IMG/VR virus record: IMGVR_UViG_3300002307_000018
Location: 128,001 to 192,000 of that record
Reading direction: 5' to 3' (one strand)
DNA from: a virus
Lineage: Duplodnaviria; Caudoviricetes
Length of the DNA stretch: 64,000 nt
A program made the position numbers and the translations under genes. Below are positions 6,133 through 54,070 of this stretch, piece by piece (position 1 is the first letter of the stretch; the number at the start of each line of letters is the position of its first letter). Under the pieces are notes generated by a model, which made no database searches, was not told the DNA's origin, and worked only from the letters and a program-made list of their open reading frames with translations.

Positions 6133-6411
6133 ATGAAAGAACACACAAGAGAAGCACTACTTATTCTACAAGAAGAATGCAGTGAAGTTACACAAGCCAC
6201 TTCAAAGTGCTTTAGGTTCGGCATAGACGGTCTATATCAAGATTGTTCTAACCGTGATCGATTGGAACAAGAACTGGGCGATGTATTAGCAATGATTGAT
6301 ATCTTAGTCAGTCAAGGGCTTGTTTCTAGCGATGCACTACAAGCAGCCAAGCAACGAAAATTCAAAAAGCTTCAGCAATGGAGTACAATCCCACGTGAGC
6401 ATATGGAGTAA
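6133..6411 (+). CDS. MazG-like nucleotide pyrophosphohydrolase
   Basis: EECSEV...ELGDV acidic motifs. Confidence 0.7.
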   Translation: MKEHTREALLILQEECSEVTQATSKCFRFGIDGLYQDCSNRDRLEQELGDVLAMIDILVSQGLVSSDALQAAKQRKFKKLQQWSTIPREHME

Positions 6412-6413
6412 TC

Positions 6414-6731
6414 ATGGAAGTCGTAATCGCTATAGTGTTAGTAGTAGCAGTATTCGCTGGTGGTTTCTACTTGGGATATGTTCGTTGTAGTCGGGACATG
6501 ATCAATGAACTTACCGAGTTAGTAATGGACAACATCATTGATCTAACCTATGAGATTGTTGACGAACAGCATTTTCTATATTATGTAGAAAACGAAGAGT
6601 TCGCAGCACAGGGTGCAACATTAGACGAGGCAGCTAAGAACTTTAGCAATCGTGACGAGAATATCGGACGCTTTATGTCTCCTCTTGGAATTCCCATGTT
6701 CATTGTCAACGGTAAGATCGAGACAGAATGA
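6414..6731 (+). CDS. Hypothetical protein with N-terminal TM helix
   Basis: Hydrophobic N-terminus; GGAG RBS. Confidence 0.6.
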   Translation: MEVVIAIVLVVAVFAGGFYLGYVRCSRDMINELTELVMDNIIDLTYEIVDEQHFLYYVENEEFAAQGATLDEAAKNFSNRDENIGRFMSPLGIPMFIVNGKIETE

Positions 6732-7719: not shown

Positions 7720-7727
7720 GATAAATA
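7720..7727 (+). promoter_or_regulatory. T4-late-like promoter motif GATAAATA
   Basis: Same motif recurs before many genes (10538, 14488, 19888, 21489; minus strand 54060..54067). Confidence 0.6.
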
Positions 7728-7734
7728 CTGTATC

Positions 7735-9360
7735 ATGAAAATCAACCACATCACCCAATCAGTCAGCGAAGCTGCAAATCCTGCTCAACAAGCGGCTATT
7801 GCAGTCAACATGAAGCGGGCGCATAAGAAACCTAAAGCGGTGTCTGAAGTCAGTAATAAGACGCTAACGAGCTATCAGAAAAAAGTAAGTGCTGATACAA
7901 TGAAAAATAACATGGACCCAACAAAGCGCAGTCCAGAAAAAAGAAATCGTAGTGTTGCGGGCGTTGCTAAGGCTCATAATCGTTTAGAAAAAAGATTGGG
8001 TGAAGGTCGTGATCAGGATGACAAGATTCTAAGACTGTTCACTAGTGGAAAATCTCCCGAGGCAATCGCAGCACAATTGAGTATTGACGTTGATACTGTC
8101 AACGATTACATCAATAACAGAATGCCGGATTCGCAAGACAATAGCCCTCGTGGTTACAGTTCTAATCGCAATGTCGGTCAGGGAATGAACGAACAATTCG
8201 ATCCGGCGACCAAGATGATGTGGATAGATCAAGTCAGTCAATTGGCGCAAGCTGTTTCACAAATGAGTCCAGAAGAGTTAGTCAAACTAAATGATGCGTT
8301 TGAGAGTTTTTATAGAGTTGCGGGCGGTGCAACTGCCGGCGCCACCGCAGTTGGTCTCGGCAATATGTTTTATTCATTGTTGAAGGATACTTTGTACGCA
8401 GCCAAGCGTAAGGCTAGAGTTGATACTGATGAAATTCTACAACTAAAGCGTCAAATCATCAGCATTCACAAAACGTTAAAGCGAGTTAAATCTGAAAAAG
8501 CTGTTGCCAAGTATCAAGCAATGCTGAAACAAGCATTTGAAGTACTGGGAGAGTTAGAGGCTCGTCAGAGCAATCGGGTGGCTGAAGGCACAGAATCAGA
8601 ACAGGAAGAACTGGCTAAAAAAATAAGAGAGTTATTGGCAGCAGGTAAAGATAGAGAAGCAAATCATCTTCGTCACAAATTAAATAATCTCCGAGATCGA
8701 AAAAGAGATAAACATAACAGACATCAAAGTGTGGCGGAAGGCTTTGGACGCGATGATGATGATTATCATCTATTAGATGTGGGACCAACTCGTTGGTATA
8801 GGTTTAAAGATGGTAGATTTTTCACGTTTAATGTTTATCCTGGTGAAGAAAAACAAGCAGAAAGAGATGGATATAGTCGTACTCAAGCTGAAGCCAGACA
8901 AAAATCTGATCAGGGCACGGACGAGCAAAGTGTGGCGGAAGACTCTGACCCATGCTGGGATAACTACAAGCAAGTAGGCATGAAGAAGAAAAATGGTCGC
9001 AAAGTTCCCAACTGTGTGCCAAAAGAAAGCTCAAACTACGGTGATCTAGACGAAGCATTCAATCTTGAAGAAGAAATCAACAAGCTAGATGAAAAGTCAG
9101 CAGCATGGCAAAAGAAGTCAGGCAAGTCTAAGTCAGGTGGACTCAATCAAAAGGGTGTAAACTCATATCGTCGTGAACATCCTGGATCAAAACTACAAAC
9201 AGCAGTGACTACCAAGCCATCAAAACTAAAACCGGGTAGCAAGCCAGCTAAACGTCGCAAGTCATTTTGCGCTCGTATGAGTGGTATGAAGGGTCCGATG
9301 AAAGACGAACACGGTAAGCCAACACGCAAGGCACTAGCACTACGTAAATGGAACTGCTAA
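7735..9360 (+). CDS. Modular basic protein, probable internal head polyprotein (C-terminal RRKSFCARM domain)
   Basis: Repeated (S/R)VAE/VSE/LDE junctions. C-terminal WQKKSGK...RKSFCARM...RKWNC domain that I recall from T4-like phages. Confidence 0.6.
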   Translation: MKINHITQSVSEAANPAQQAAIAVNMKRAHKKPKAVSEVSNKTLTSYQKKVSADTMKNNMDPTKRSPEKRNRSVAGVAKAHNRLEKRLGEGRDQDDKILRLFTSGKSPEAIAAQLSIDVDTVNDYINNRMPDSQDNSPRGYSSNRNVGQGMNEQFDPATKMMWIDQVSQLAQAVSQMSPEELVKLNDAFESFYRVAGGATAGATAVGLGNMFYSLLKDTLYAAKRKARVDTDEILQLKRQIISIHKTLKRVKSEKAVAKYQAMLKQAFEVLGELEARQSNRVAEGTESEQEELAKKIRELLAAGKDREANHLRHKLNNLRDRKRDKHNRHQSVAEGFGRDDDDYHLLDVGPTRWYRFKDGRFFTFNVYPGEEKQAERDGYSRTQAEARQKSDQGTDEQSVAEDSDPCWDNYKQVGMKKKNGRKVPNCVPKESSNYGDLDEAFNLEEEINKLDEKSAAWQKKSGKSKSGGLNQKGVNSYRREHPGSKLQTAVTTKPSKLKPGSKPAKRRKSFCARMSGMKGPMKDEHGKPTRKALALRKWNC

Positions 9361-9361
9361 C

Positions 9362-9772
9362 ATGAGAGCCAGCGAATTCATTACCGAAGCAAAGAAAGAG
9401 TCTCATCCTGAACGAGAAAAGGGCAAGAAGTCTCCGAAACTTAATCCAGATCATGAATCCACTATGAAAAACGTTCACAAGACACGTGACGTAGGTGGAT
9501 ATGATCGTATATATCACATGAATCGCATGGGTATGGCAATGGCAATGGCAGACGGTAAGAGTCATAAGCCTGTAGATATGGATGCATCCAGTTGGACAGA
9601 AAAGTACAATACGCTACACCCATACACCGATGAAGAAGAAAACATGATTCATCAGGCAATGGCGACTATTCCAACTGATCATAAACACGTGTCTAACTCA
9701 AGAGACAGCAAAGAACCAGATCACGTACATAGAATAAGCCCAGTAACCGGCTTCAAAGGATACGCAAGATGA
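9362..9772 (+). CDS. Hypothetical protein with capsid-targeting-like N-terminus
   Basis: MRASEFITE; paralogue of next gene. Confidence 0.6.
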   Translation: MRASEFITEAKKESHPEREKGKKSPKLNPDHESTMKNVHKTRDVGGYDRIYHMNRMGMAMAMADGKSHKPVDMDASSWTEKYNTLHPYTDEEENMIHQAMATIPTDHKHVSNSRDSKEPDHVHRISPVTGFKGYAR

Positions 9773-10179
9773 GAGCAAAAGATTTTCTAACAGAAGCATC
9801 TGATGACATGTTCAATCTGCCAACATCAAAATTACCGCCTGATGTAGCAGGTGCACTGCCCGCCACCTATACAATCCCAAAATTACAAAACAACGATCCC
9901 TATCATCAATATAGATTTGGTGTAGCAATCGCCTCGGCCAAAGGTCGTGCATATGACAGAAAACAGGGTACAACACGGCTTGCACCAGCTACTCCCTGGG
10001 GCGAAAATGAAATTGTAGTAAGTTTTGATCCCGATATTGCAGAGTGGATTGATGATGCTCTAGAACAGATTGGTTTAAAACCTAGTGATAAGAAACTAAT
10101 CAGTACAATGAAAAGTCAGGAAGCGCCGGACGTTGAATACAAAAGTCCGATTCAAGGATTTAAAGGTTACGAACGATAG
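9769..10179 (+). CDS. Hypothetical protein with capsid-targeting-like N-terminus
   Basis: MRAKDFLTE; shares SPxxGFKGYxR C-terminus with previous gene. Confidence 0.6.
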   Translation: MRAKDFLTEASDDMFNLPTSKLPPDVAGALPATYTIPKLQNNDPYHQYRFGVAIASAKGRAYDRKQGTTRLAPATPWGENEIVVSFDPDIAEWIDDALEQIGLKPSDKKLISTMKSQEAPDVEYKSPIQGFKGYER

Positions 10180-10187
10180 GAAACACT

Positions 10188-10508
10188 ATGGACTTAAATG
10201 AAATACTAACAACAATAAAAAATGATTGGGCATTCTTGATGTTTGCGTTTACAATCGGTGGTATCTGGTGGCAGGGTAAAGCTTGGTTCAAAAAGATTGA
10301 TTCCGCTCTTAGTCGTGAGGGCGATGAGCATAATTCTCAATCTGCCATGCTACAGTCAATACACGATAAGATAGAAAATCTAGAAGATCGTACAACCAAG
10401 GTTGAAGAAATCGTTACACGCATACATGAAGAACAGCATGAGCAAGAAGTCAAGCTTGCAGTGTTAGAGTCAACTGCGTCACGTCGTCGCAACACATCAA
10501 GAACGTAA
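10188..10508 (+). CDS. Single-TM coiled-coil protein
   Basis: One hydrophobic helix then heptad pattern; AGGA RBS. Confidence 0.5.
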   Translation: MDLNEILTTIKNDWAFLMFAFTIGGIWWQGKAWFKKIDSALSREGDEHNSQSAMLQSIHDKIENLEDRTTKVEEIVTRIHEEQHEQEVKLAVLESTASRRRNTSRT

Positions 10509-10566
10509 ATCTCAAATAATCGTCGTTAACAAGTTTAGATAAATAGTTTATACACTCTTATAAACT

Positions 10567-13137
10567 ATGAAACCATTTGAATTTATCTATGAAAGTTTTC
10601 TAAAAGAAAGATTTAACGGCTGGAAACCAGAAATTTTCAGACGTTATGCCGACGGCACTTTCAGTGTTAGATTGCCTGACGGCTCTACACGCAAATTCAG
10701 AAACATGCAACAGTTGTATCACTATAGACGTGCAAACAATTTATTGTCTGCCAGTGAACAAGCCGCCGATGCTGTACAAGAACCAGAAGACCCAGTACAA
10801 GCTCCTGCAGTTACAAAACCAAGAGCAGTTGCAAAACCAAGAGCAGTTGCAAAACCAACGATCACAAAACCAGCAGATGCAACTCCGCCAGCAGAACCCT
10901 TATCAAAGAGCAATGTTCAACAGGGCATTGATGCTGCACAAGCAACCAAAGCAACAGGCTTTACGGCAGACCCAGAAGATCCTTCTAAAAGTTATGCAAA
11001 GTCAGTTGTTGCTAACAAGTCAAGAGAAGCAAGTACAAATCGCTATGGTATCGACAACGTATATCTTATCAATGCTGATGGTGAAGCACTAGTGTTTCAC
11101 GGGTTCGCAACAGTTCCAATGATCATGGACAGCTTTCATCAGTCTACTAGCTTTGGATTAGGCGTAGACTTGGTTAAAGCAATGGCAGCAAAGTTCCCAC
11201 ATCCAAAGCAAAGCGCAGTTATCGCTGATATTGAAGCGACTGGATATACATCTAAGAAAGATGCGTATCCTCTAAAAGTATACGGAAAGCAATACCCAAC
11301 ATTGGGCTGGGCATCAGCTGGAAAGGCAAAGATTCAGTTTGAAAGTGGAGACATGAACAAAGCAGTTGCAACAGCGGAAAGTGCTATTGCTAGTGCATTC
11401 AAGGGCAAAAATCTGCGTGGACCCGAAGGTGGTATCATATGGGTAAATCCAGGTGATCGTGCGTCTGCTATTGGATTCGCTTTAAGTCATTGCGTAAAGA
11501 CTCCAACAAAAGATTTCCCACAAACAGGCGCAGACAAAGATTGGTCTGCATATACAAAAGACAAAGAGATTACACACTATGTGTTTGGATACTTCAACAC
11601 ATCTACTGGCGGTATCGATGTTAACCCAGACAGCGGTAAGCAAGTATTCCCACAGTTTACTGTTGGTCTGATTGAGAAACTAACAGGCTTTCGTGGAGCA
11701 GGTAAGAAATCAGAAAAGCGTCAAAGTGACATCAAACCTAACACTGTACTGGGAATGTCTCCCGGCATGGCTGGTTTGAACACAGTCAATGAATTGGGTA
11801 TTGCAATTGAGGGTAGAACTCTTAACAGTCCGTTCAGTGACATATACTCTCTTATCAAGACTAACTGTGCTGATCCTAAGAAGCCACAAAAAGTCAAGAA
11901 ACTAATTGAGATCACTGACGAAACAATTGGTAAGTCAGCCAATCAAACAGTTAGCTATCCTGTAGTTATCGATGACATTTCAATGGACGAAGCTGGTTTT
12001 GCAACCAATGCAGTTACAGTTGACTTTATGGAAATTCTACACCCGCTTATTCTTATGAAGCCTGATGGCGCAGTGAATGAAGGTTTCATGGACAACGGTA
12101 TTTACGAAGCAGCATTGGCGTTCTTGGGTACAACTGATCTAAGCAAGTGCAAGGTGTTTTATCCCGCAGCGGCTAATGCTCCTATGTATGACAGTATACT
12201 GCTGTACAACAACAAGACACTAATGGTCAGTAGCAAGGGTAAAGTCGGTGCAACTCCTGCGGTTACAGGACTGGGTAGTGCGTATCTTACTTTAGTTACC
12301 AACCCTAATCTTCCAAAGCAAGTCAAAGCAGCATTCAAAGAGTTAATGACTGGTCACCCAGAGTACGGTAACTTGCTGAAATATTTCAACACAGGCGATT
12401 CATCTGACTTACCCAAAGTTGGTAAAGCAAAAGCAATTGGTCAGCAATTGCTGCAACTACAAGCAGCAAAGGGTCAAACAGCAAAACGAGCGATTGGTGT
12501 TAAAGTTGCAGCCGCACTGAATGAATTAGACAGAGGACAGTTTGTCGAGTTCTGTCAGTTTGTCATGAGTTCTACCAATCTTGTACAGGTCAACACAATG
12601 TATGACGAGCAAGATTCTAGTATCGTTGTAGAGGGTTTTACCGCTACATGGCCTAACGCAGTGTATGACAACATTGAGTTTTCATTCGGCAATCAACTTG
12701 CATTCAAACTAGCAATTGGTGGCATGGGTAGTGCAACATCCACAGATGGTCCCGACTTCGACTCGTACAAGACCATTGACAACAAGGGCAAGAAAACAGT
12801 CAAGCCACGTTTTGCAGGTTTGGGAAATTTCTCAGGTCTAACAGTTCCTGGAACAAAGGGATTGCCTTTCGGAAGAGGCGGAAAACCAGCACCAAAAGAC
12901 AATAACTGGCCCGCAACTCTAAAAGAGCTAGACACTAGATATACAAAGTTTATGCAAGAATATGAGGGACAATCTGATCGAGCCAAGAGAATAAATGCAA
13001 TAGATGAACTGCAACCATACTATGATCCTGTTGTGCAACTCGTAAGAAAGGTCGGTCACAATCCATCAATGGAAACCGGAACTACATACACAACCCGAGA
13101 TTTGCTCGATAGAATTAGAAAATTATTAGGACAATAA
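10567..13137 (+). CDS. Large hypothetical protein with capsid-targeting-like N-terminus; possible PD-(D/E)xK-like domain
   Basis: 856-aa ORF; MKPFEFIYE; KPRAVA repeats; YPxxxNxPMYDS...VSSKG. Confidence 0.55.
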   Translation: MKPFEFIYESFLKERFNGWKPEIFRRYADGTFSVRLPDGSTRKFRNMQQLYHYRRANNLLSASEQAADAVQEPEDPVQAPAVTKPRAVAKPRAVAKPTITKPADATPPAEPLSKSNVQQGIDAAQATKATGFTADPEDPSKSYAKSVVANKSREASTNRYGIDNVYLINADGEALVFHGFATVPMIMDSFHQSTSFGLGVDLVKAMAAKFPHPKQSAVIADIEATGYTSKKDAYPLKVYGKQYPTLGWASAGKAKIQFESGDMNKAVATAESAIASAFKGKNLRGPEGGIIWVNPGDRASAIGFALSHCVKTPTKDFPQTGADKDWSAYTKDKEITHYVFGYFNTSTGGIDVNPDSGKQVFPQFTVGLIEKLTGFRGAGKKSEKRQSDIKPNTVLGMSPGMAGLNTVNELGIAIEGRTLNSPFSDIYSLIKTNCADPKKPQKVKKLIEITDETIGKSANQTVSYPVVIDDISMDEAGFATNAVTVDFMEILHPLILMKPDGAVNEGFMDNGIYEAALAFLGTTDLSKCKVFYPAAANAPMYDSILLYNNKTLMVSSKGKVGATPAVTGLGSAYLTLVTNPNLPKQVKAAFKELMTGHPEYGNLLKYFNTGDSSDLPKVGKAKAIGQQLLQLQAAKGQTAKRAIGVKVAAALNELDRGQFVEFCQFVMSSTNLVQVNTMYDEQDSSIVVEGFTATWPNAVYDNIEFSFGNQLAFKLAIGGMGSATSTDGPDFDSYKTIDNKGKKTVKPRFAGLGNFSGLTVPGTKGLPFGRGGKPAPKDNNWPATLKELDTRYTKFMQEYEGQSDRAKRINAIDELQPYYDPVVQLVRKVGHNPSMETGTTYTTRDLLDRIRKLLGQ

Positions 13138-13138
13138 C

Positions 13139-14050
13139 ATGAAATTTAGTGACGTATTATTAGAAGCTGCGGACCCAAAGTTGTTAAAATATCTGTCTGG
13201 GAATAGTGACTACTATAAGGTCGGCCCAGACTATGTGTTCATTTGGACTAACGCTAGACTTCGTGAGTTGCTCAAGAACGGAGCAAGAATGGGCGATGCA
13301 GGTCTTGGAACAGTTACCACTCCAGTCAAGACATCAGATGGTCTTGGAGTTGTATCAGTGCGAACAGGAGATGTTTGCGTTGGAGCCGTTGACAGAGACT
13401 ATGTTGCCAGATGGGTAAGCAGTGTTCCTGATGGTGATCCTGCCAGATTTTTCAGAACAATTCAAAGCAGTAAGATCAGAGAGCTACCAACAAAACTTCA
13501 AGACTTGGGCGATTACTACAGCACTGAGTCGGAAAAGAGTGATCCTAATCGAGTGACTAGCAAGGGCGTTCAGAAAATTATTGACACCATCAACACGAAT
13601 GATGATTATGAATTTCTCAGAGATGACTCAGAAATTTTAGATATTGAAGATATGAGTCCTAGCGAAGCAAAAAGTCATTTTGAAGAAGCAATTAGAAAAA
13701 TGAAACACAGAGAAAAAATTCTTCAAAAACAAGTCAAGAAAATAATGGATATCATGAGAGAGAAAGAAGATCAACTTTCTGATGAAGAAATATTAGACTT
13801 GGGTAGACAAGCAAAAAGAATGGGTGGAACTGAGATTCGTGGAATTTCATTGGTAGTCAATGATCTAGAAAGATTCATCAAACGTGAAGCGAATCTATTC
13901 ATTGATGACACAGAAGAAAAAGCAGACGATGAAGAAGAAATCAACGACACCGACACTGACAACAAGATTGATCTGTGGATGGAAGAATTTGAAACTAACT
14001 TTCCTGGTCTTGAGATCAGAGACTCGCATCAATTTGACCCTAACATCTAA
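13139..14050 (+). CDS. Hypothetical protein with capsid-targeting-like N-terminus
   Basis: MKFSDVLLE; acidic C-terminus. Confidence 0.6.
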   Translation: MKFSDVLLEAADPKLLKYLSGNSDYYKVGPDYVFIWTNARLRELLKNGARMGDAGLGTVTTPVKTSDGLGVVSVRTGDVCVGAVDRDYVARWVSSVPDGDPARFFRTIQSSKIRELPTKLQDLGDYYSTESEKSDPNRVTSKGVQKIIDTINTNDDYEFLRDDSEILDIEDMSPSEAKSHFEEAIRKMKHREKILQKQVKKIMDIMREKEDQLSDEEILDLGRQAKRMGGTEIRGISLVVNDLERFIKREANLFIDDTEEKADDEEEINDTDTDNKIDLWMEEFETNFPGLEIRDSHQFDPNI

Positions 14051-14052
14051 CT

Positions 14053-14499
14053 ATGAAATGGCACGAGATCACCAACGAGGCTGTCAACGAGAAAATATTT
14101 CAGCGTGGGTTTGAAGAAACAAAACCATACGACAAATACATTCTTGTGGCCAAGCATGGTGAACTGCCCTACGTTCCCAACAAACGTGCTACACGCAGTG
14201 ATCAGTTTAGAGTAGAATGTCGCAAGGGTGGAGCTGTGATTGCATGGGTCAACTTTGCTCTTGCTAACGACCACTTAGAAGCTATCGATGTAAACGTTGA
14301 CAACAAGTATCGTCGTCAGGGTATAGCCACTGCTATGTACAAGTTTGCTCGTGAGTTAGGAAACGACATCAAACCATCATCAAAACAACGCCCACTAGGT
14401 CGTGCATTCTGGAGTGACAAGACATCGGAAGTTCTCAAAGAAGTTACCGATCTACAACCGCCGGCAATTCTTGACGGTCTTAACATAGATAAATACTAG
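14053..14499 (+). CDS. GNAT-family acetyltransferase
   Basis: VDNKYRRQGIATAMY acetyl-CoA motif A. Confidence 0.8.
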   Translation: MKWHEITNEAVNEKIFQRGFEETKPYDKYILVAKHGELPYVPNKRATRSDQFRVECRKGGAVIAWVNFALANDHLEAIDVNVDNKYRRQGIATAMYKFARELGNDIKPSSKQRPLGRAFWSDKTSEVLKEVTDLQPPAILDGLNIDKY

Positions 14500-14502
14500 A
14501 CT

Positions 14503-16350
14503 ATGAAATTTGAAGAACTCAACCAACAGCTAGATGAAGTACGCATGGCGCAAAGCAATTTGCAACAGTTCTTGAACTCGCCACGCGCCGCGGGTATGCG
14601 CGCTGGATTTGAAGCAGAACTTATTTTTGCCGGTGCTGCATATTCAATCTACGATGATAACAATGTACAGTACGTTGATGATATGTCAGAAGATGAAAGC
14701 ACTCATGATATAGACTCTATCATTGAGTTCTTTTCTCAGAATGATTACGATTCTCATCAGATACGCAGACTTAGAAACCAATTGTGGAACAATTATACTG
14801 AGTGGCGTGATAAAGTATCTCTAAATGATTTCAGACACAGAGATAAAGAAATGGTAAAGCTGTGGATTGAAGATTATGGCTGGGACGTGACTGCTAAAAT
14901 CGAAGAGTATCTTCGTGACGAGATGGGTCTTAATGAGAAACAAGTATCTGATGCACGTCGAAGAGGTAATTATTATGCAGATAAAATCGACAGTTCAAAA
15001 CAACAACAGAAATTTCGTGAAGCAGATAAGGACTATGATAATTTCTTAAAAGCATCTTTTGCAGTAGATGAAAAATTAGACGAACTAGTAGAAGAAGAAG
15101 TAGAGTTTGAGGGCAAGGCATGGCAAGCAGCCTACGATGAATGGCGCGATGAAGATGACTATGATCAAGAACACTGGTTAGAAGCAAATGATTATACTTC
15201 TATGAGTTCTATTCAGTATGACTATGACATAAATTGGCCCTTTCAAATCGAAGATGAGGATTCAGATCGAAGTGGATACTCTTATGAGGGCGCAGAGGCG
15301 CTTGCTAATTCGCTACATGATGATCTTGGAGTGCAAACAAAAGTAACAAGTAGCTATCACGCTCAAACAAAAGATGGCGTTAGTTGGTATTTTGAACCTG
15401 ATGGTTCATTACGTCCCGATGAAGAAGATGACATGCCATGTGAGATTGTATCTCCGCCCTTACCCTTAAAAGAAACACATGACATTCTTCCCTTATTCTT
15501 TCAATGGGTAGACGAAAATGAGGGCTACGCCAACAAGTCAACAGGCTTTCATATGAGCTTGAGTATGCCTGATCACAAGCCAGCAACAGTTGACTTTCTA
15601 AAGCTGGCATTGTTCATGGGCGATGAGCATGTACTAACAAATTTTAGCAGACAAGCAAACGAATACTGCGAAAGTTCACTAGGCATTATTAGAAATAGAT
15701 TGACAAATATGTCATCTCAAGAAGATATAACAACTAGATTAGATTTGGCATTCAGCGCAATGCGTAAAAATTTGCTTGATCTTGCAAGCAAGGCAGTAAA
15801 CACTCGTGGTCAGGGAAAATTCGTATCAATCAATGATCGTGGTAACTACATTGAGTTTCGTAGTGCAGGTGGATCAAACTACTTTAGCGACATCAATCTT
15901 GTGCAAAACACGCTGTTGCGTTATGCGTATGCTATGAGTATTGCTAGCGATCCCACAGCAGAACGTCAAGAGTATGCCAAGAAACTATACAAGTTCTTGG
16001 CTCCTGCAATTCAATCTAGCCCTGATGCAATGCAGTACTTTGTACAGTACACAACAGGTCAATTGACACGCCCAGAACTGGTAAGCGCCGTCAAACAAGT
16101 AGTCAGAAAGCGTCAACTAGCAAAACGTACACCAGATCAAATAGCGGCAGATCAAGATGGCGTACATAATTACTGGGAGTTACGCAATACTAGTCAGGGA
16201 AATGCACTTAATTTGTTTTCGGCCACCGGTCGTGAAGATGCTTATCGACAAGCACTAGATTGGGCGCAACGTCATCTTGGTCTGCGTATGTCAGCATTAC
16301 CTGCAAACTTAGAAGTTAATAGAGTAACTGATGATCCGGACCATTCATAA
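14503..16350 (+). CDS. Putative amidoligase (COOH-NH2 ligase type 2)
   Basis: GFEAE, PDGSL, EIVSPP, TGFH and IEFRS motifs. Confidence 0.72.
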   Translation: MKFEELNQQLDEVRMAQSNLQQFLNSPRAAGMRAGFEAELIFAGAAYSIYDDNNVQYVDDMSEDESTHDIDSIIEFFSQNDYDSHQIRRLRNQLWNNYTEWRDKVSLNDFRHRDKEMVKLWIEDYGWDVTAKIEEYLRDEMGLNEKQVSDARRRGNYYADKIDSSKQQQKFREADKDYDNFLKASFAVDEKLDELVEEEVEFEGKAWQAAYDEWRDEDDYDQEHWLEANDYTSMSSIQYDYDINWPFQIEDEDSDRSGYSYEGAEALANSLHDDLGVQTKVTSSYHAQTKDGVSWYFEPDGSLRPDEEDDMPCEIVSPPLPLKETHDILPLFFQWVDENEGYANKSTGFHMSLSMPDHKPATVDFLKLALFMGDEHVLTNFSRQANEYCESSLGIIRNRLTNMSSQEDITTRLDLAFSAMRKNLLDLASKAVNTRGQGKFVSINDRGNYIEFRSAGGSNYFSDINLVQNTLLRYAYAMSIASDPTAERQEYAKKLYKFLAPAIQSSPDAMQYFVQYTTGQLTRPELVSAVKQVVRKRQLAKRTPDQIAADQDGVHNYWELRNTSQGNALNLFSATGREDAYRQALDWAQRHLGLRMSALPANLEVNRVTDDPDHS

Positions 16351-17228
16351 TGAAATCAACAGAATTTCTAACTGAAACTCTGAGTCGTGTTGCGTATCAT
16401 TATACAAGACTAGACAAAGCGGCAAAGATCATGAAAGCTGGACAATTTGAATTGTCTAGTGATCTAGGCAGCGTAGAACAACAGTACTCACCCAAGGGCT
16501 ATCGTTACTTCTTAAGCACTGCTCGAACAAAAACTGGTGGATATCACGCTATGATTGGTAGTGATGCTACTATGTTTGTGCTAGACGGTAACTGGTTCAA
16601 TAATCACTATATATCAAAACCAGTAGACTACTGGCTCAATCGTGATCCATCACAATTACATCATCGTTCGCATGAAGCAGAAGATCGTGTGTTTTCAAAA
16701 ACACCCACAATACCTGTTGATGGAGTTAGTTCCATTCATATTCTAATCAAACCAGAACGTGCTCATGAATATGCAGGTGCTTGGGCAAGAACAGTACTGA
16801 TCAATGCAAAGAGACGAAACATACCAGCATACTTGTACAATGATGAAACTGCATGGCGTCGTTTAGACACCAGCAAAGCACAACCAATTTCCAACAACCC
16901 AGCATTGCGTGGTCAACAACACATTGTTACCAGACAATCTAGATACAATCTCAAAGGGTATTTACATTCATGGTTACAGTTGATCAATGCTACTGATCAA
17001 AAACAACTGACTAAAGATGCAGATAAACTACGCTATAGTCTAAAATATAATCAAGACTCTAAAGACGCTCTTCAAGGACTTGCAAATGAAATGTCTAACG
17101 CTCGTAAGCCTGACAATGGCATAGATCGTGAGAACGCAGTCAATATCATTCGCTATATGCAGAAGAATCGAATGAACGATTTAAGTGACTTGATAAAACA
17201 TTTACAAAAGAAGTGGTCTACAGAATGA
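16350..17228 (+). CDS. Hypothetical protein, possible ADP-ribosyltransferase fold
   Basis: YHYT...FLSTAR...FVLDG...EAEDR pattern; MKSTEFLTE N-terminus. Confidence 0.4.
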   Translation: MKSTEFLTETLSRVAYHYTRLDKAAKIMKAGQFELSSDLGSVEQQYSPKGYRYFLSTARTKTGGYHAMIGSDATMFVLDGNWFNNHYISKPVDYWLNRDPSQLHHRSHEAEDRVFSKTPTIPVDGVSSIHILIKPERAHEYAGAWARTVLINAKRRNIPAYLYNDETAWRRLDTSKAQPISNNPALRGQQHIVTRQSRYNLKGYLHSWLQLINATDQKQLTKDADKLRYSLKYNQDSKDALQGLANEMSNARKPDNGIDRENAVNIIRYMQKNRMNDLSDLIKHLQKKWSTE

Positions 17229-18022
17229 AGATCAATGAAATTTTACTAGAGTCTAGCTATCACAAGTTACCTGCGCTTCAAACTGTCTTTGAGGCAGGGT
17301 GGGATCGTCAACCTATCAAACACTACAGTGACAAGGAACAGGCGGAGATACATCGTGCGGAAGAATTGCCCTGGGATTCAAAAAATCAAAAAGATATCTT
17401 GGGCTATACCGGCAACGGCGCCAGTAAGTGGAATGATTTTCTACATCGTCACTATCGTGGGCTAGCCAAACCAGCAGCAATTGAAAAATACGGCAAGCGT
17501 GTGTCAGGTGTTGATCGTGAACTGGCAAAAAATGTGCTGAAGAAAGACTACGTTCTCTATACTGGTTTACCAGAAAGCCCAATTGAAGCATTCAAGCTGT
17601 ATAAACAGCCAACCAATCGACCACTGACTGTTCATCTACCTGCATACACCAGCACCATCACTAGATGGGACATTGCAGCCGGGTTTGCGACCAATCAAGC
17701 TAGTTGGGATCCTATTGATCGCAGTGGACATAAAGTTTTAGATCCAACGGGCAAACAAATAAAAAACTCACAAAAAAAGAATAAGAGAATTCGAGAATTT
17801 GACATACTCAGAATTTTTGTACCAGCAGGAACCACAGGTGCCAGCGTTGCAGAACTATCGCAGAACTACGATGAGGCTGAAGTATTACTGCCACGTGGAC
17901 TGAATATAGTTATCTCTCCCAATCCACATCAAGTTGAATATCGAGGCGATATCTTTTATGTTTGGAATGCAAAGGTAGTAGGACACACGCCACAGCCGAT
18001 TGTATTTGACCAAAAAGATTGA
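17225..18022 (+). CDS. VIP2/Alt-like ADP-ribosyltransferase
   Basis: YTG...N..L, YTST, LRIFVPAG and EAEVLLPRG (ExE) motifs. Confidence 0.72.
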   Translation: MKINEILLESSYHKLPALQTVFEAGWDRQPIKHYSDKEQAEIHRAEELPWDSKNQKDILGYTGNGASKWNDFLHRHYRGLAKPAAIEKYGKRVSGVDRELAKNVLKKDYVLYTGLPESPIEAFKLYKQPTNRPLTVHLPAYTSTITRWDIAAGFATNQASWDPIDRSGHKVLDPTGKQIKNSQKKNKRIREFDILRIFVPAGTTGASVAELSQNYDEAEVLLPRGLNIVISPNPHQVEYRGDIFYVWNAKVVGHTPQPIVFDQKD

Positions 18023-18046
18023 CATTACATCTGAGTATGCTATAAT
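18019..18046 (+). promoter_or_regulatory. sigma70-type promoter (leaderless start)
   Basis: TTGACA-16-TATAAT; ATG 6 nt downstream. Confidence 0.7.
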
Positions 18047-18052
18047 AGATAC

Positions 18053-18250
18053 ATGACTGAACAAACAAAATCAACCGTAGAAGCCGTAACTTACGAGGTC
18101 GTTACAAAGATCGATCCTGAAACTGGAGACACCATTCTTCCTATTCCACCAGAACTTCTGCAACGCATGGGTTGGAAAGAGGGTGATGAACTTGACATTG
18201 GACACGATACCGAGGGTCGCATTGTATTCACCAAGCGTGGTGGAACATGA
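18053..18250 (+). CDS. AbrB/MazE/SpoVT-like DNA-binding protein
   Basis: ILPIPPELLQRMGWKEGDELDI. Confidence 0.7.
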   Translation: MTEQTKSTVEAVTYEVVTKIDPETGDTILPIPPELLQRMGWKEGDELDIGHDTEGRIVFTKRGGT

Positions 18251-18621
18251 GTACAACTCCACCACTTACAATCAACACAGGAGCAGGCGTTGCCGGTAGT
18301 TCTGGTATCGGCGGTCAAATGCTGATACTTAGTGCCAACGGACCGCAATGGAACAAATCTGGCATCGACACCTCTTTGGGACTTTTTGTCAAGGGTGACG
18401 CTGAGATTGGGGGCACACTAACAGTGGGCGGGCAAGAAATCACCAAGACAATTGACGAACGATTATCTGCCATTGAAGAGCGTCTTGGCATTCTCAGAGT
18501 AGACGAAAAGCTGGCAGATCGCTGGGCAGAATTGGGCGAATTGCGTAAACGCTATAGAGAATTGGAACAAGAGTGCTGGGAAAAGGACGAAATCATTCGT
18601 TTGCTCAAGGGAAAAACTTGA
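18247..18621 (+). CDS. Hypothetical protein with C-terminal coiled coil
   Basis: ATGA-coupled ORF. Confidence 0.55.
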   Translation: MSTTPPLTINTGAGVAGSSGIGGQMLILSANGPQWNKSGIDTSLGLFVKGDAEIGGTLTVGGQEITKTIDERLSAIEERLGILRVDEKLADRWAELGELRKRYRELEQECWEKDEIIRLLKGKT

Positions 18622-18646
18622 CAATAAATCCCACTTGTGCTATAAT
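18618..18646 (+). promoter_or_regulatory. sigma70-type promoter
   Basis: TTGACA-17-TATAAT with extended TG. Confidence 0.8.
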
Positions 18647-18676
18647 GTACTATAATCTACTATTACGGTACAAACT

Positions 18677-19057
18677 ATGACAATGCACTTGACACACTTC
18701 ACGACTACTGGCAAACGCAAAGGTAAGCTTAAGTATGCTTCTGCCGAAGCCAAGCGTACGGCAGAACAATTGGAACAAGACTGGCAGGCACTAAAGAAAT
18801 CTTACAGTGCGCCACCAGTCAAAAAGCCCATCAAAAATTCCAGAACTCTTGGCAAAAGTCTGCCCACGATCCCGCAGCGTGGGTCATTGTTGTCTGCACC
18901 CTCGCTCAATTCTGGCATTGGCATTGCGGCAAAAGCACCTGTGCCTGTGTATACGGGCGACAAGATCAAGGGTATTGGCACAATGCACAAGAGTAATGCG
19001 GTGCCTGTGTTCAGTGATGAAGAAGCACACGACATTTCCAAAATGAGACGAGGATAA
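18677..19057 (+). CDS. Conserved T4-like phage hypothetical protein
   Basis: YTGDKIKGIGTMHKSNAVPV motif. Confidence 0.6.
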   Translation: MTMHLTHFTTTGKRKGKLKYASAEAKRTAEQLEQDWQALKKSYSAPPVKKPIKNSRTLGKSLPTIPQRGSLLSAPSLNSGIGIAAKAPVPVYTGDKIKGIGTMHKSNAVPVFSDEEAHDISKMRRG

Positions 19058-19071
19058 GCTAAATACATTAT

Positions 19072-19287
19072 ATGGCAAAAGAAGAACCGATTATATTAAC
19101 AGGAGTTGTCACTGAACTGCTTCCCGCTGGAACATTCCGAATTAAATTACCTAACGACAAACTCGTACTAGGGCATTTATCTGGAAAAATTCGTCAACAC
19201 GCAATAAAGGTGTTATTAGGTGATCAGGTATCTATCGAATTTTCCCCGTATGATCTGACTAAAGGCAGAATTGTCCGGAGATTATAA
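19072..19287 (+). CDS. infA: Translation initiation factor IF-1
   Basis: [47 protein letters not shown]. Confidence 0.92.
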
Positions 19288-19892
19288 TGTACTTTTTGTA
19301 TGAAAAAACTCACAAGCAGACCGGACTTAAATATCTAGGTCAAACAAAAGAGAACCCGTATCTTTATACGGGTTCTGGCATTGATTGGAGAAAACATCTT
19401 AAAGAATACGGTAGCGAGATAGATACTTATGTATTATTTCAATCTGAAATTTGGAATGAAATTGTTTATTGGGGTAGATATTACAGTCAACTATATAACA
19501 TCGTCAATGCTCAAGACGACTTTGGAAATAAAATCTGGGCTAATCGTATACCAGAAACTGGAGGTGGCGGAAGTGATTGGAACGAAGAAACAAAATTAAA
19601 GCACAAGATGTCGTTGAAAGCATCACATAGTATGTCATCAGTTAAAGAAATTGATAGATTAAATGGCATAAAAAGTGCAAATTTACGAATTCAAAATAAA
19701 ACACATAATTTATTGGGTTCTAATAATGTAAATTTTGATCACAAAATTCATGAATTTTATCATAATGATGGAACTGTCGAAAATGTCACACGAAAAGAAA
19801 TGATGATAAAATATGACTATCTATCTCATTCTGGAATGTCGTTACTCATAAATGGGCTTCAATCTCATCACAAAGGATGGAGAGTACGATAA
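19287..19892 (+). CDS. Seg-like GIY-YIG homing endonuclease (free-standing)
   Basis: LYEKTHKQTGLKYLGQT...YTGSG..W.KHL; AT-rich. Confidence 0.7.
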   Translation: MYFLYEKTHKQTGLKYLGQTKENPYLYTGSGIDWRKHLKEYGSEIDTYVLFQSEIWNEIVYWGRYYSQLYNIVNAQDDFGNKIWANRIPETGGGGSDWNEETKLKHKMSLKASHSMSSVKEIDRLNGIKSANLRIQNKTHNLLGSNNVNFDHKIHEFYHNDGTVENVTRKEMMIKYDYLSHSGMSLLINGLQSHHKGWRVR

Positions 19893-19901
19893 ATACTATC
19901 T

Positions 19902-20456
19902 ATGCGTGAACTCATTACCCTACTAGAAGCAAAGTCAAAAGACGATATCGGCATTGTCGATCTATCGTACAAAGAGGATGCGCTTGCTCCAACAATGAGC
20001 AAGGATACTATCAAGCTACATTGGGGTAAACTAGCATACGCTTACGCTGAACGATTCAACAAGGGCGAGGGCGATCCCGAGTTCAACTATGCAGGCGCAA
20101 TGCTGCATAACATCTTCTTTGCACAGTTTCGTGAAGGTAGAAACAAGAATGAACCCAACGGTCCCGTTGGTAATCTAATCAAACAAAAATTCAAAAACTT
20201 CTCTAACTTCTGTGATGAGTTTACATCATCAGCCATGTCTATTCAGGGCAGCGGATGGTGCTATCTATCACGCAGCGGAGAAATCAAAACAATACCCAAT
20301 CATGCAATGCGTACTGACATATTGATACTAGTCGATATGTGGGAACATGCTTACTTGCTAGACTACGGCAGTGACAAAAGCAAGTATCTAGCTGATATTT
20401 GGCGCATTATGGATTGGAACAAAATCAATGCAGTATGGGGTCAAGCTTACAAATGA
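19902..20456 (+). CDS. sod: Fe/Mn superoxide dismutase
   Basis: ALAP.MSK.TI.LH, HNIFF, GSGW and DMWEHAY motifs. Confidence 0.85.
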   Translation: MRELITLLEAKSKDDIGIVDLSYKEDALAPTMSKDTIKLHWGKLAYAYAERFNKGEGDPEFNYAGAMLHNIFFAQFREGRNKNEPNGPVGNLIKQKFKNFSNFCDEFTSSAMSIQGSGWCYLSRSGEIKTIPNHAMRTDILILVDMWEHAYLLDYGSDKSKYLADIWRIMDWNKINAVWGQAYK

Positions 20457-21136
20457 AACAGTCAGAGATCATAAACGAAATAATACCACTATCTCAAAGA
20501 GCTTTTAAGGGTGAAATTGAGCCTCTTAGCCCCGAAGAACGTAGACAGTTACGTGGAGCTAAACCACTTCCTGGAGGTAGCAAATACTTTTACAAAGTCA
20601 TTGCTAATACTAATGGCAATACCATTCGTCTTATCGATCACGATCACGCTAACAAAGTCATAGGTGAATTGATAATACTAACCGATGTGCAGTTTCCCAT
20701 AAAGAATTCTGCTCATATATCATCGATTGAAATAGACGAGGCGTATCGTGGTCAGGGACTAGCAAAAGCACTGTACGGTATTGCCATGGCTATACTAAAA
20801 TACACACTGATTGCTGGCAACAGTCAGACTCCCGGTGGCCGCAGAAACTGGGTCAGCTTGTACAATATACCCAATGTTGTAGTGCAAGGTTATGTCATGA
20901 TTGATGATGCATACTTGAAGAATGACAACGATTTTATCGACAGAATTATGCACATTGGCGCTGAGTATCTTGGTAAAATCGGTGGGAGAAAAAGAACAGA
21001 TCATTTCTTTGCATTCCCGCTTACAATTGACAAACTTCAACTGAAGAATGCAATCAAGGGCAGCGACTTTGATCTGTACAGCCATCACGGCCACGTGGCC
21101 ATAGAAGTAGGTATGTTTGCTCAATGGAAACCTTAA
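20453..21136 (+). CDS. GNAT-family acetyltransferase
   Basis: IEIDEAYRGQGLAKALY motif. Confidence 0.75.
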   Translation: MKQSEIINEIIPLSQRAFKGEIEPLSPEERRQLRGAKPLPGGSKYFYKVIANTNGNTIRLIDHDHANKVIGELIILTDVQFPIKNSAHISSIEIDEAYRGQGLAKALYGIAMAILKYTLIAGNSQTPGGRRNWVSLYNIPNVVVQGYVMIDDAYLKNDNDFIDRIMHIGAEYLGKIGGRKRTDHFFAFPLTIDKLQLKNAIKGSDFDLYSHHGHVAIEVGMFAQWKP

Positions 21137-21137
21137 C

Positions 21138-21464
21138 ATGATAACACTAACAGAATCAGCAATTACGAAAATTAAAGACATTATTATTGATGAACAGAAT
21201 CCACTGCTTAAATTGCGAGTGTTCATTGAGGGCGGAGGCTGTAGCGGAATGAACTACAACTTTACTCTTGATGAAGAACAAAGTGATGACGATTTTGTCG
21301 TTGATAGTAGTGATGTTCAATTGCTCGTCGATGGCTCAAGCATGGAATATCTACGTGGAGCAACCATCGACTACGTAGAATCAATACACGGTAGCAACTT
21401 TTCAATCTCAAACCCCAATGCTCAGACTACGTGTGGGTGCGGAAGCTCGTTCAATCCCTATTGA
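21138..21464 (+). CDS. erpA: A-type Fe-S carrier (ErpA/IscA/HesB)
   Basis: GGGCSG and TCGCGSSF motifs. Confidence 0.88.
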   Translation: MITLTESAITKIKDIIIDEQNPLLKLRVFIEGGGCSGMNYNFTLDEEQSDDDFVVDSSDVQLLVDGSSMEYLRGATIDYVESIHGSNFSISNPNAQTTCGCGSSFNPY

Positions 21465-52562: not shown

Positions 52563-52873
52563 TGGGTAACATAGCAGAACTAATTTCAAAGTATGGATTC
52601 CCAATCGTGGCTGCGGTTGGTATGGGCATGATGATCAAGTATGTATGGACATGGGCTACCACCGAGATCAAGCCTATTATCAGTGAAGCAAACACAGTGT
52701 TGATTGCACTGATTGATCGCATTCGTATGTTAGACAATGATCTAATCAGACTAAATCAAAAAGTCAATACCGTGTTACACTTACGTGGCAAGACAATTGA
52801 ACATGAGCGTGTAGAGGCTGAAGACAAGATCAACAGCAAGAATGACAGTGCTGCTAGTGGCGGCTCGTCGTAG
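52562..52873 (+). CDS. Small membrane protein (GFPI motif), paralogue of previous
   Basis: YGFPIVAA...LIDRIRMLDNDLIR. Confidence 0.55.
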   Translation: MGNIAELISKYGFPIVAAVGMGMMIKYVWTWATTEIKPIISEANTVLIALIDRIRMLDNDLIRLNQKVNTVLHLRGKTIEHERVEAEDKINSKNDSAASGGSS

Positions 52874-53372
52874 AATAGCGTTTGATAGTAGCAACACTAG
52901 CGGGATCGTTTAACAACAAAACTAATCCATTGTGTAGCGGACTGGGCAGAGTATCTAGTGTACACCATACATAGCCCTGAGTTTCCCAGTCTAGTGTAGG
53001 TTTGAATTCTGTTTGTATCAATGCTAGATAATTGTAATACTTGAAACCGCTTGGATGAGAAAACACATACAGTGGTACTAATTTAAGTTTTCCATGATAC
53101 CCAGATTCTTCCATAGCTTCTCGTTTGACTGCACTTTCAGGTGATTCATTAGAGTCGATTGCTCCACCCCATGTACCCCATGTTCCTGGCTGCTCTACTT
53201 GTGATGATCTGTGAGCGATACATAGTTTCCCTGTATCATGTGCTAAGAACAAACATCCTGCTCCTTGCTTGCCCCAAAAACCAGTTTGCTTTAATGCTTC
53301 TCTGTGTTCAGCGTCATCTTCTGCGAATATATTCCACGCACGACGTTCGTTAAGGATTTCTGTTATCTTCAT
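52854..53372 (-). CDS. NUDIX hydrolase with capsid-targeting-like N-terminus
   Basis: GGAIDSNESPESAVKREAMEESG Nudix box; MKITEILNE. Confidence 0.85.
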   Translation of the reverse strand: MKITEILNERRAWNIFAEDDAEHREALKQTGFWGKQGAGCLFLAHDTGKLCIAHRSSQVEQPGTWGTWGGAIDSNESPESAVKREAMEESGYHGKLKLVPLYVFSHPSGFKYYNYLALIQTEFKPTLDWETQGYVWCTLDTLPSPLHNGLVLLLNDPASVATIKRYSTTSRH

Positions 53373-54055
53373 CTTGTTGCCAGCGCAGTTCTGTCATATA
53401 CAGGATCAGTAAAGACCATTACTGGCCCACGCATCATAATGTTCTCGTCATGTATATCTAATCTATATCCCGACTGATTAACAAACTGATTTAAAATGTC
53501 AAGTGCAGGGACAAAATCAGGATATTTCTGAATGTAAGCATAAAAGCTGTTAGCTGCTGGCTCAGGATCATTGGGTTTTCTTTTAGCAATCAGATGATCA
53601 ACGATTTTACTAGGCGAAAGTTTAGTACGCATTGCGTTGGTAAGTAATGCATTGATTGGCTGCAGTAGTTCATATGCTTCTCTAGTGATACGAGTTAGTT
53701 TTTCCATTCTAACAGCCACAACACCAGGAACAATACGCATTGCTTTAGTACTGATAAAATGTGGCATGTGCGGGTTATCACTGTGTTGACGTGCAGTATT
53801 GATCCAGTCAATATATGCTTTGTCTTGATCAGTAAACACTTTTAACACATAGGGTAAGTTTGGATTGTCCCATACTGTACCAAATGATCCTGACCCTAGT
53901 GCTCTAAATCCATTGTTGTAAAGCAGCTTATGCCAGTCCATACCAAGGGGATACTCAGCAACTCTACGTGGGTCGCGTGGCATGTCCTTGACTACATTCT
54001 TGATGCCAGTCAGTTCTTCTAGGGTTTCTTCGGTTAGTATGTCTGCAATTTTCAT
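53369..54055 (-). CDS. Protein-kinase-like enzyme with capsid-targeting-like N-terminus
   Basis: LGSGSFGTV, VLK, DIHDENIM and TDP motifs; MKIADILTE. Confidence 0.78.
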   Translation of the reverse strand: MKIADILTEETLEELTGIKNVVKDMPRDPRRVAEYPLGMDWHKLLYNNGFRALGSGSFGTVWDNPNLPYVLKVFTDQDKAYIDWINTARQHSDNPHMPHFISTKAMRIVPGVVAVRMEKLTRITREAYELLQPINALLTNAMRTKLSPSKIVDHLIAKRKPNDPEPAANSFYAYIQKYPDFVPALDILNQFVNQSGYRLDIHDENIMMRGPVMVFTDPVYDRTALATR

Positions 54056-54070
54056 CTAGTATTTATCTAA

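Follow-up and report, generated by a model that had tools for sequence, protein, structure and literature searches.

A shared nine-residue N-terminus on late enzymes of an uncultivated giant T4-like lake phage: a likely counterpart of the T4 capsid-targeting sequence

Why should a superoxide dismutase (SOD), two GNAT acetyltransferases, a NUDIX hydrolase, an amidoligase, an ADP-ribosyltransferase (ART) and several proteins of no assigned family begin with nearly the same nine residues? The question arises in a window of 64,000 nucleotides (nt) of viral DNA, bases 128,001-192,000 of the 264,637-bp IMG/VR record IMGVR_UViG_3300002307_000018; coordinates below are those of this window unless marked "genome". 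A sequence-only reading had listed 13 open reading frames (ORFs) with such an N-terminus, most of them between positions 7735 and 21136, and had proposed that it acts as a capsid-targeting sequence (CTS), the short peptide that sends the internal proteins of phage T4 into the head. All 13 ORFs are present with the N-termini quoted, on the + strand except for those starting at 53372 and 54055, which are on the - strand, and 11/13 have Glu at position 9. We consider it likely that this nine-residue N-terminus, together with a few longer or shifted variants, is this lineage's version of the T4 CTS.

The tag, as we call this N-terminus, has the consensus M-[KR]-x-x-[DE]-[ILVF]-[ILVFT]-x-E; positions 7-9 read [LIT]-x-E in 14/14 canonical tags, and the residue that follows the Glu is usually small. 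Of the 259 called genes, 13 have the strict motif at the start or no more than 20 residues from it, and not one of the roughly 1,426 internal Met residues begins such a motif (Fisher p = 2e-11); a degenerate DNA pattern of the tag gives 13 matches in the whole record versus 0 for the reversed control. The two halves of the motif go together: 17 genes have the prefix M[KR]xx[DE][ILVF], and 10 of these 17 continue with [ILVFT]xE at positions 7-9, as compared to the 1.6% predicted from composition, the [IL]xE half being tied to the prefix about 35-fold above expectation. The conserved positions use differing codons (GAA/GAG, ATT/ATC/ATA, CTA/CTT/CTG/TTA), and this synonymous variation points to selection on the peptide. 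The called start codons are supported by overlaps of the ATG with the upstream stop, as ATGA at 9769, 17225, 20453 and 53372 and as TAATG at 16350.

Extending the scan to the whole genome added four canonical carriers outside the window (genome 63374-, 67972-, 103353+ and 208555-, the sign giving the strand), for a total of 17 carriers, i.e., 14 canonical 9-mers and three variant tags outside the strict consensus, those of a 541-amino-acid (aa) protein (7735), the amidoligase (14503) and the SOD (19902). Judged from their sequences, at least 14, and probably 17, mostly unrelated late proteins share the tag. The sequence-only reading had called the ORFs unrelated, which holds for most of them; three paralogue pairs are the exception (the two kinase-like proteins, the proteins at 9362 and 9769, and the two GNATs), and with only these three pairs, paralogy of whole proteins was rejected as an explanation.

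Tag-like starts that fall short of the consensus were also seen. Degenerate tags occur at genome 100350 (+), 241386 (-), 102869 (+) and 103738 (+), with the sequences MKASEIISDD (Asp for Glu), MKIHEIHDT, MKITDFQIHD (a dCMP-deaminase-like ORF) and MKISDITIPK; by analogy, these ORFs may be uncleaved cargo or just non-cargo. Inside the cluster, a 106-aa predicted membrane protein (10188-10508, +) starts MDLNEILTT, a near-tag without the basic residue 2 and without Glu9.

When are the tagged genes expressed? The motif [GT]ATAAATA, the analogue here of the T4 late promoter TATAAATA, lies almost always 4-60 nt upstream of an ORF start, tail-fibre-like genes among them. It is found within 40 nt upstream of 8/17 tagged genes, at a spacing of 4-21 nt, versus 24/243 other genes (p = 2.5e-4), and eight more tagged genes follow in the same operons, via ATGA or adjacent junctions. 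That several carriers sit behind a late motif had been noticed from the sequence, and it is borne out in the window, where GATAAATA lies 7 nt before the 541-aa ORF (7720-7727, +), 21 nt before the 856-aa ORF at 10567 (10538-10545, +), 7 nt before the amidoligase gene (14488-14495, +), 6 nt before the SOD gene (19888-19895, +) and 4 nt before the kinase-like gene at 54055 (54060-54067, -). This arrangement suggests late expression of the tagged genes.

The late motif falls into two spacing classes, with 14 sites just 4-7 nt before ATG, e.g., GATAAATACTAGATG, and a second class 17-27 nt away; short spacers are seen at window 54053-54067 (-), genome 208553-208567 (-) and genome 63372-63387 (-). 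Were transcription to begin, as in T4, a few bases past the motif, nearly leaderless mRNAs would result for many late genes.

The comparison with T4 depends on what the source phage is. A tblastn search with 49 T4 proteins found homologues of gp43, gp41 (truncated by the end of the record), gp46/47, the late sigma factor gp55 and NrdA in the record, with no structural gene among the matches, and the record's DNA polymerase shares 44-50% identity with the enzymes of Atu_ph07, Phosso, CBB, GAP32 and comparable myoviruses of 350-490 kb. Because of these replication and late-transcription homologues and of the polymerase identity, the record is, on its gene content, part of the genome of a giant phage in the T4 superfamily, an uncultivated myovirus from lake metagenomes. 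Its completeness is 74% according to CheckV, and terminal repeats are absent. Sequence words nearly identical to it turn up in the metagenomes of at least nine freshwater and lake studies, and a megablast of the region against GenBank phages returned no close relative.

In T4, the CTS was reportedly described by Mullaney and Black in 1996; the internal proteins (IPs) of T4 are small inhibitors, and, to our knowledge, two of the three have no assigned function. We read the T4 N-termini from NC_000866 (150 kb), and a slash is set here after the Glu that ends each tag or propeptide. The gp21 substrates begin with MKTYQEFIAE/A (ipII and ipIII), MAKINELLRE/S (gp24), MLKEQLIAE/A (gp22), MNEPQLLIE/T (gp21 itself), MEGLIE/A (gp67), MLLIPE/T (gp68), MELITE/L (Alt) and MKTFKEF...ITE/A (ipI). 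The segment E5-[IF]6-[LI]7-x-E9 of the tag aligns with E6-F7-I8-A9-E10 of IPIII. A fixed-register profile of the tag did not recover the IPs when run on T4, because their Glu is at position 10. The CTS of IPI, IPII and IPIII and the N-terminal propeptides of Alt and gp24 are removed by the prohead protease gp21 (PMC9026906, PMC3012670, PMC5694885). For the targeting of IPIII, residues 4 and 7 matter most, and for its processing residues 8 and 10; an Asp at position 10 stops the cutting and not the targeting (PMC9026906); residues 7, 8 and 10 of IPIII are the conserved positions 6, 7 and 9 of the tag.

The likeness is one of both sequence and setting. In T4 as here, a short N-terminal peptide sits on otherwise unrelated late proteins and runs from a basic residue 2 through an acidic, an aromatic or aliphatic and an aliphatic residue, then any residue and Glu, to end in (I/L)-x-E; this phage has a gp55-type late sigma factor, its relative has a gp21/gp23 cassette (see below), and its cargo includes an ADP-ribosyltransferase, as T4 has Alt. 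There are differences as well: the tag is one residue shorter, with Glu at 9 instead of 10; at least 17 carriers are found here in three quarters of a genome, against three IPs and Alt; and the putative cargo consists mostly of recognisable enzymes (SOD, NUDIX, GNAT, kinase-like, amidoligase and DarT-like proteins), whereas the T4 proteins are small and basic. No homologue of the T4 IPs or Alt is found among the putative cargo proteins. Giant phages of the phiKZ, 201phi2-1 and SPN3US type offer another comparison, with many head-internal or ejected proteins, the virion RNA polymerase included, that are cut by a gp21-related protease after small-x-Glu (PMC5694885, PMC10052503). Their propeptides, however, are mostly 80-130 residues long, share no common short tag and are cut at S/A/G-x-E, and this phage belongs to a different lineage, having a T4-type polymerase and gp55 and, in its relative, a gp23-type capsid cassette.

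Is the tag kept by relatives, and does a protease able to cut it accompany it? Many relatives are present in IMG/VR; in five larger ones, whose DNA polymerases are 60-81% identical, the tag pattern has 4-8 matches each and 0 in the reversed controls. One tag-bearing relative, G003, encodes the T4 head cassette with its genes arranged as in T4: portal, gp67-like acidic protein, Peptidase_S77 protease (PF03420, E = 2.9e-26), a gene of 363 aa at the place of the scaffold, and Gp23 (PF07068, E = 1.7e-100). The 363-aa gene has no Pfam match and is called scaffold (gp22) by position only. Identity between the protease and T4 gp21 is 34%, with the His and Ser motifs conserved, and the capsid protein, read against the T4 sequence, has I-L-E and L-K-E sites where T4 gp23 matures. 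Orthologues of the carriers at 40-65% identity retain the tag, and their linkers vary. Judging from the start of the SOD domain at residue 19 and from the low confidence (predicted local distance difference test, pLDDT) of the cargo N-termini in structure models, the tag is an add-on to the proteins that bear it. In fusions of the kinase-like family (NUDIX-kinase, GNAT-like-kinase and others), it is found at the extreme N-terminus only; in the genome studied here, two neighbouring genes encode the NUDIX and the kinase-like protein, and both products bear a tag.

Such single tagged fusions of cargo modules were seen among metagenomic relatives, in the proteins P0024, P0019, P0021, P0026, P0030, P0225 and P0264, and join NUDIX to kinase-like, GNAT-like to kinase-like or NUDIX to DarT-like modules. 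The sequence at the junctions, E-[ET]-L-x-E-L, is itself an L-x-E site, at which the modules could be separated after packaging.

The tag is position-specific, selected at the level of the peptide, conserved in the clade, carried by genes with late motifs, and matches the T4 gp21 substrates. We infer core binding, cleavage, presence in the virion and ejection into the host, in the following steps: the tagged proteins would be made late; the tag would bind the scaffolding core while the prohead assembles, so that the protein is enclosed; a gp21-type prohead protease would cut after the Glu of hydrophobic-x-Glu, leaving the mature protein inside the head; and the cargo protein would exit along with the DNA when the next cell is infected. 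The proposed cargo comprises exotoxin-type and DarT/Tpt1-like ADP-ribosyltransferase folds, two kinase-like proteins, two GNATs, the NUDIX hydrolase, the amidoligase, the Fe/Mn SOD and several proteins of no assigned function. The phage probably packages this enzyme set for delivery with its DNA, and ejection before any phage gene is expressed would follow by analogy with the T4 IPs and Alt. The CTS or propeptide proposal of the sequence-only reading agrees with the sequence, the lineage, the late-promoter context and the conservation in relatives, and we keep it as something that we infer.

One has to keep in mind, nevertheless, a series of results that weigh against reading the tag as a CTS. 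Head protease, scaffold, portal and capsid genes were not found in the 74%-complete record, in which the Peptidase_S77 and Portal_T4 profiles have no match; because head genes are lacking there, the link to a gp21-type protease rests on G003, with its polymerase 60% identical. The tag is lost in some family members, such as the kinase-like proteins that begin with MKITELVGIKN, and others keep the prefix only (MRAHEFDQP). In ten cultured T4-superfamily phages, the exact 9-mer is near background, with 0-4 matches versus 0-3 in controls, and we therefore regard this form of the tag as an expansion in the freshwater clade. A bare [IL]xE near the N-terminus is unspecific, matching 41/305 T4 ORFs, so that the three variant tags are less certain and rest on orthologue evidence. 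As to virions, the SOD homologue of Pseudomonas phage PA5oct, which starts MNDSIKKYISIAE/A, is flagged in GenBank as found by tandem mass spectrometry with electrospray ionization (ESI-MS/MS) in purified virions; the same mass spectrometry (MS) set also holds thymidylate synthase, FtsH and DNA ligase, and seven of the MS matches are labelled "virion-unrelated enzymes" by the authors of that study. Because the set contains such plain non-structural enzymes, the detection of the SOD counts as weak support.

The record has a sole Gp23 match, a 119-aa ORF (L001 1354-1713, -; genome about 6330-6689) adjoining the gp46/47 homologues. It covers Pfam Gp23 positions 7-61 only, the conserved QPM..G.IH.LR.RY segment near the capsid N-terminus; the full capsid gene was not found in the record.

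Could the tag send proteins to the prohead that are then not injected? They might act inside the head, the SOD guarding the packaged DNA, for example, or the GNATs and the amidoligase modifying head proteins, or they could be parts of the core or scaffold that are degraded and lost. Every argument for head targeting fits this explanation equally well; T4 gp22, gp67 and gp68 have similar N-termini and are destroyed, not ejected (PMC5694885), and the 541-aa protein, with its repeated V-[AS]-E sites, looks made for cutting up. The cargo, however, includes folded enzymes whose catalytic motifs are intact (Nudix box, SOD ligands, ART ExE, kinase) and which need substrates such as NAD, ATP or acetyl-CoA, a supply of which is unlikely in a DNA-filled head, and Alt, the enzyme cargo of T4, works in the host after being ejected, according to its GenBank note. 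We regard head-targeted proteins that are not injected as an unlikely but real alternative.

Still less probable, in our view, is that the tag is a recognition leader for a partner other than the capsid, such as a radical-SAM maturase of the kind acting on ribosomally synthesized and post-translationally modified peptides (RiPP-like), a chaperone or protease adaptor, or that it is an in-cell localisation signal. The genome does have nine radical-SAM matches, at genome 43-57, 102 and 221-233 kb, with the tagged genes 63374 and 67972 sitting 6-11 kb beyond the nearest, and ClpS and ClpX genes adjoin the PA5oct SOD homologue. Yet more than 30 kb separates any radical-SAM gene from the main cluster, which holds 12 tagged genes (genome 135-149 kb), and from the 181-182 kb pair, and the tag ends in the exact P3-x-P1 motif of T4 gp21 and resembles proven gp21 substrates residue by residue. 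A radical-SAM leader was rejected, as no such gene is near the main cluster or the 181-182 kb pair. For want of a hydrophobic core, the tag is no Sec or Tat signal either: a signal peptide was rejected for a tag of nine residues with two acidic positions, followed by polar linkers and with no hydrophobic (h-) region of at least 7-15 residues after a basic n-region.

That the similarity is a by-product of a translation-start or leaderless-mRNA preference or of gene calling, with no function at the protein level, is most improbable and already close to refuted: M[KR] starts (64/256) and MKI starts (16/256) are common, several tagged genes start 4-7 nt past a late motif with mRNAs that are maybe nearly leaderless, and non-virion-type proteins such as the dCMP-deaminase-like ORF begin in a similar way, but the conserved positions vary synonymously, other late genes with short spacers lack the motif, prefix and [IL]xE half are linked, and the motif persists in the orthologues and in hundreds of metagenomic homologues, so that sequence and statistics led us to reject chance and start-codon context.

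Returning to the tag as a CTS, what would it mean? The CTS and its use by T4-like phages for loading diverse proteins have already been published (PMC3012670, PMC9026906, PMC5694885), and the novelty first claimed for the system was, thus, overstated: it would extend a known mechanism and add no new one. What is new is the 9-residue consensus of the freshwater clade, the number of carriers, the enzyme-rich cargo and the fusion and fission of modules behind one address. If the tag works as in T4, the injected proteins of a whole clade of uncultivated lake phages can be read from sequence. The cargo list is unusual in including enzymes by which proteins, nucleic acids or small molecules would be modified, and it points to early host take-over or anti-defence by ADP-ribosylation, phosphorylation, acetylation, hydrolysis of nucleotide signals and superoxide removal; the cargo proteins are candidates for biochemistry, and the tag variants form a natural set for T4-based protein-packaging vectors. 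More tentatively, and as a possibility that we would not yet favour, the tag could be the sequence-readable mark of an "injectome" of a widespread freshwater clade of giant T4-like phages, in which pre-loaded ADP-ribosyltransferases, kinases, acetyltransferases, NUDIX hydrolase, amidoligase and SOD would disable host defences and signalling before phage gene expression, with modules shuffled by fusion and fission behind one N-terminal address.

Which proteins, then, carry the tag in the window? The cluster opens with the modular basic protein of 541 aa (7735-9360, +), which has a C-terminal DUF6321 according to Pfam and the variant tag MKINHITQSVSE, assigned with the help of its orthologue: in relative G001, the orthologue, of 629 aa, has the canonical MKITQILSE at its start and QGVAEG after it. 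The internal (Q)SV[AS]E/[GAD] sites of the 541-aa protein suggest that it may be a protease-processed polyprotein. Two paralogous 136-aa proteins follow, MRASEFITE/A (9362-9772, +), with tagged orthologues in G002 and G003, and MRAKDFLTE/A (9769-10179, +), then an 856-aa protein, MKPFEFIYE/S (10567-13137, +), and a 303-aa acidic protein, MKFSDVLLE/A (13139-14050, +). The 856-aa protein had no Pfam, PHROG, PDB or phage match, an Atlas search gave no usable lead, and neither tblastn to GenBank phages nor a related-locus search returned a match.

Among the enzymes, Pfam supports the assignments made from the sequence alone for the SOD, the NUDIX hydrolase, the two GNATs, the amidoligase and the exotoxin-type ART, and gives no match for the kinase. 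The first GNAT (148 aa, MKWHEITNE/A; 14053-14499, +; Acetyltransf_1, E = 3.6e-6) has the CoA-binding motif RRQGIA. It precedes the 615-aa Amidoligase_2 protein (14503-16350, +; PF12224, E = 1.2e-9), whose longer variant tag is MKFEELNQQLDE/V and whose orthologue in G001 begins with MRYQEIKSLLE. An amidoligase domain was also seen in relative G004, at about 50.5-54.9 kb (L118/L119), within a frame that stays open for over 1,600 aa and contains QVAEG-type sites; IMG/VR labels this record a provirus.

The 292-aa protein that follows (MKSTEFLTE/T; 16350-17228, +) is assigned more weakly, by fold or motifs, as having an N-terminal DarT/Tpt1-like ADP-ribosyltransferase fold. Its AlphaFold2 (AF2) model has a pLDDT of 86.9, with residues 1-7 below 50, and the best Foldseek PDB matches are DarT and tRNA 2'-phosphotransferase (Tpt1), with a probability of about 1.0 but an E of about 1e-3 and template modelling (TM) scores of 0.3-0.64. 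H17-Y18-T19 and E109/E111/D112 are invariant in the family, as compared to the NAD site of H-Y-[EDQ] type, and an N-terminal hydrophobic-x-E tag is found in 104/120 homologues. The exotoxin-type ART (265 aa, MKINEILLE/S; 17225-18022, +; ADPrib_exo_Tox, E = 1.3e-11) shows STI and EAE motifs in its sequence.

The Fe/Mn SOD (184 aa; 19902-20456, +) bears the Alt-like tag MRELITLLE/AKSK. Its Pfam matches are Sod_Fe_N (E = 1.1e-7), which begins at residue 19 and leaves an N-terminal extension of about 17 residues, and Sod_Fe_C (E = 6.7e-23), and it has the D-x-W-E-H-A-Y signature (DMWEHAY) and the His residues of the N-domain. Across clusters of SOD homologues, an N-terminal [ILVFM]xE ends at residues 7-11 in 112/115, in an extension of MR[DE]LITLLE type. 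The second GNAT (227 aa, MKQSEIINE/I; 20453-21136, +; Acetyltransf_1, E = 1.6e-4) closes the cluster.

On the other strand lie the NUDIX hydrolase (172 aa, MKITEILNE/R; 52854-53372, -; NUDIX, E = 3.1e-13), with an intact Nudix box, and a protein-kinase-like enzyme (228 aa, MKIADILTE/E; 53369-54055, -). The G002 orthologue of the NUDIX protein keeps the tag with a different linker, the one here being seven residues longer. Neither of the two kinase-like proteins has a Pfam match, and the assignment is made more weakly, from conserved motifs and a low-TM fold match: G54, G56, K72, D200, H202, N205 and D217 (G-loop, Lys, DxHxxN, D) are invariant in 22 sequences of the family, the AF2 model of the 228-aa protein has a pLDDT of 85.8, with residues 1-10 below 50, and the best Foldseek matches are all kinases or aminoglycoside phosphotransferases (APH), with low TM scores of 0.3-0.38. 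For most of the remaining carriers, PDB sequence, Atlas and PHROG searches matched no known family; PDB sequence searches with three cargo proteins gave no match, and 9/10 tagged proteins had no match in PHROGs.

Other genes accompany the tagged ones. The cluster contains an untagged MazE/AbrB-like 65-aa protein (18053-18250, +; E = 4.8e-6) and an untagged homologue of translation initiation factor IF-1 (19072-19287, +; Pfam eIF-1a, E = 2.1e-19), and the second GNAT gene is followed by an IscA/HesB-type Fe-S cluster biosynthesis protein (21138-21464, +; E = 2.8e-21), likewise untagged. Directly upstream of the tagged kinase/NUDIX pair, a 684-aa adenylate/guanylate-cyclase-like protein (54071-56125, -) has counterparts with 38-42% identity in Methylophilales phage Melnitz and Pelagibacter phage HTVC008M.

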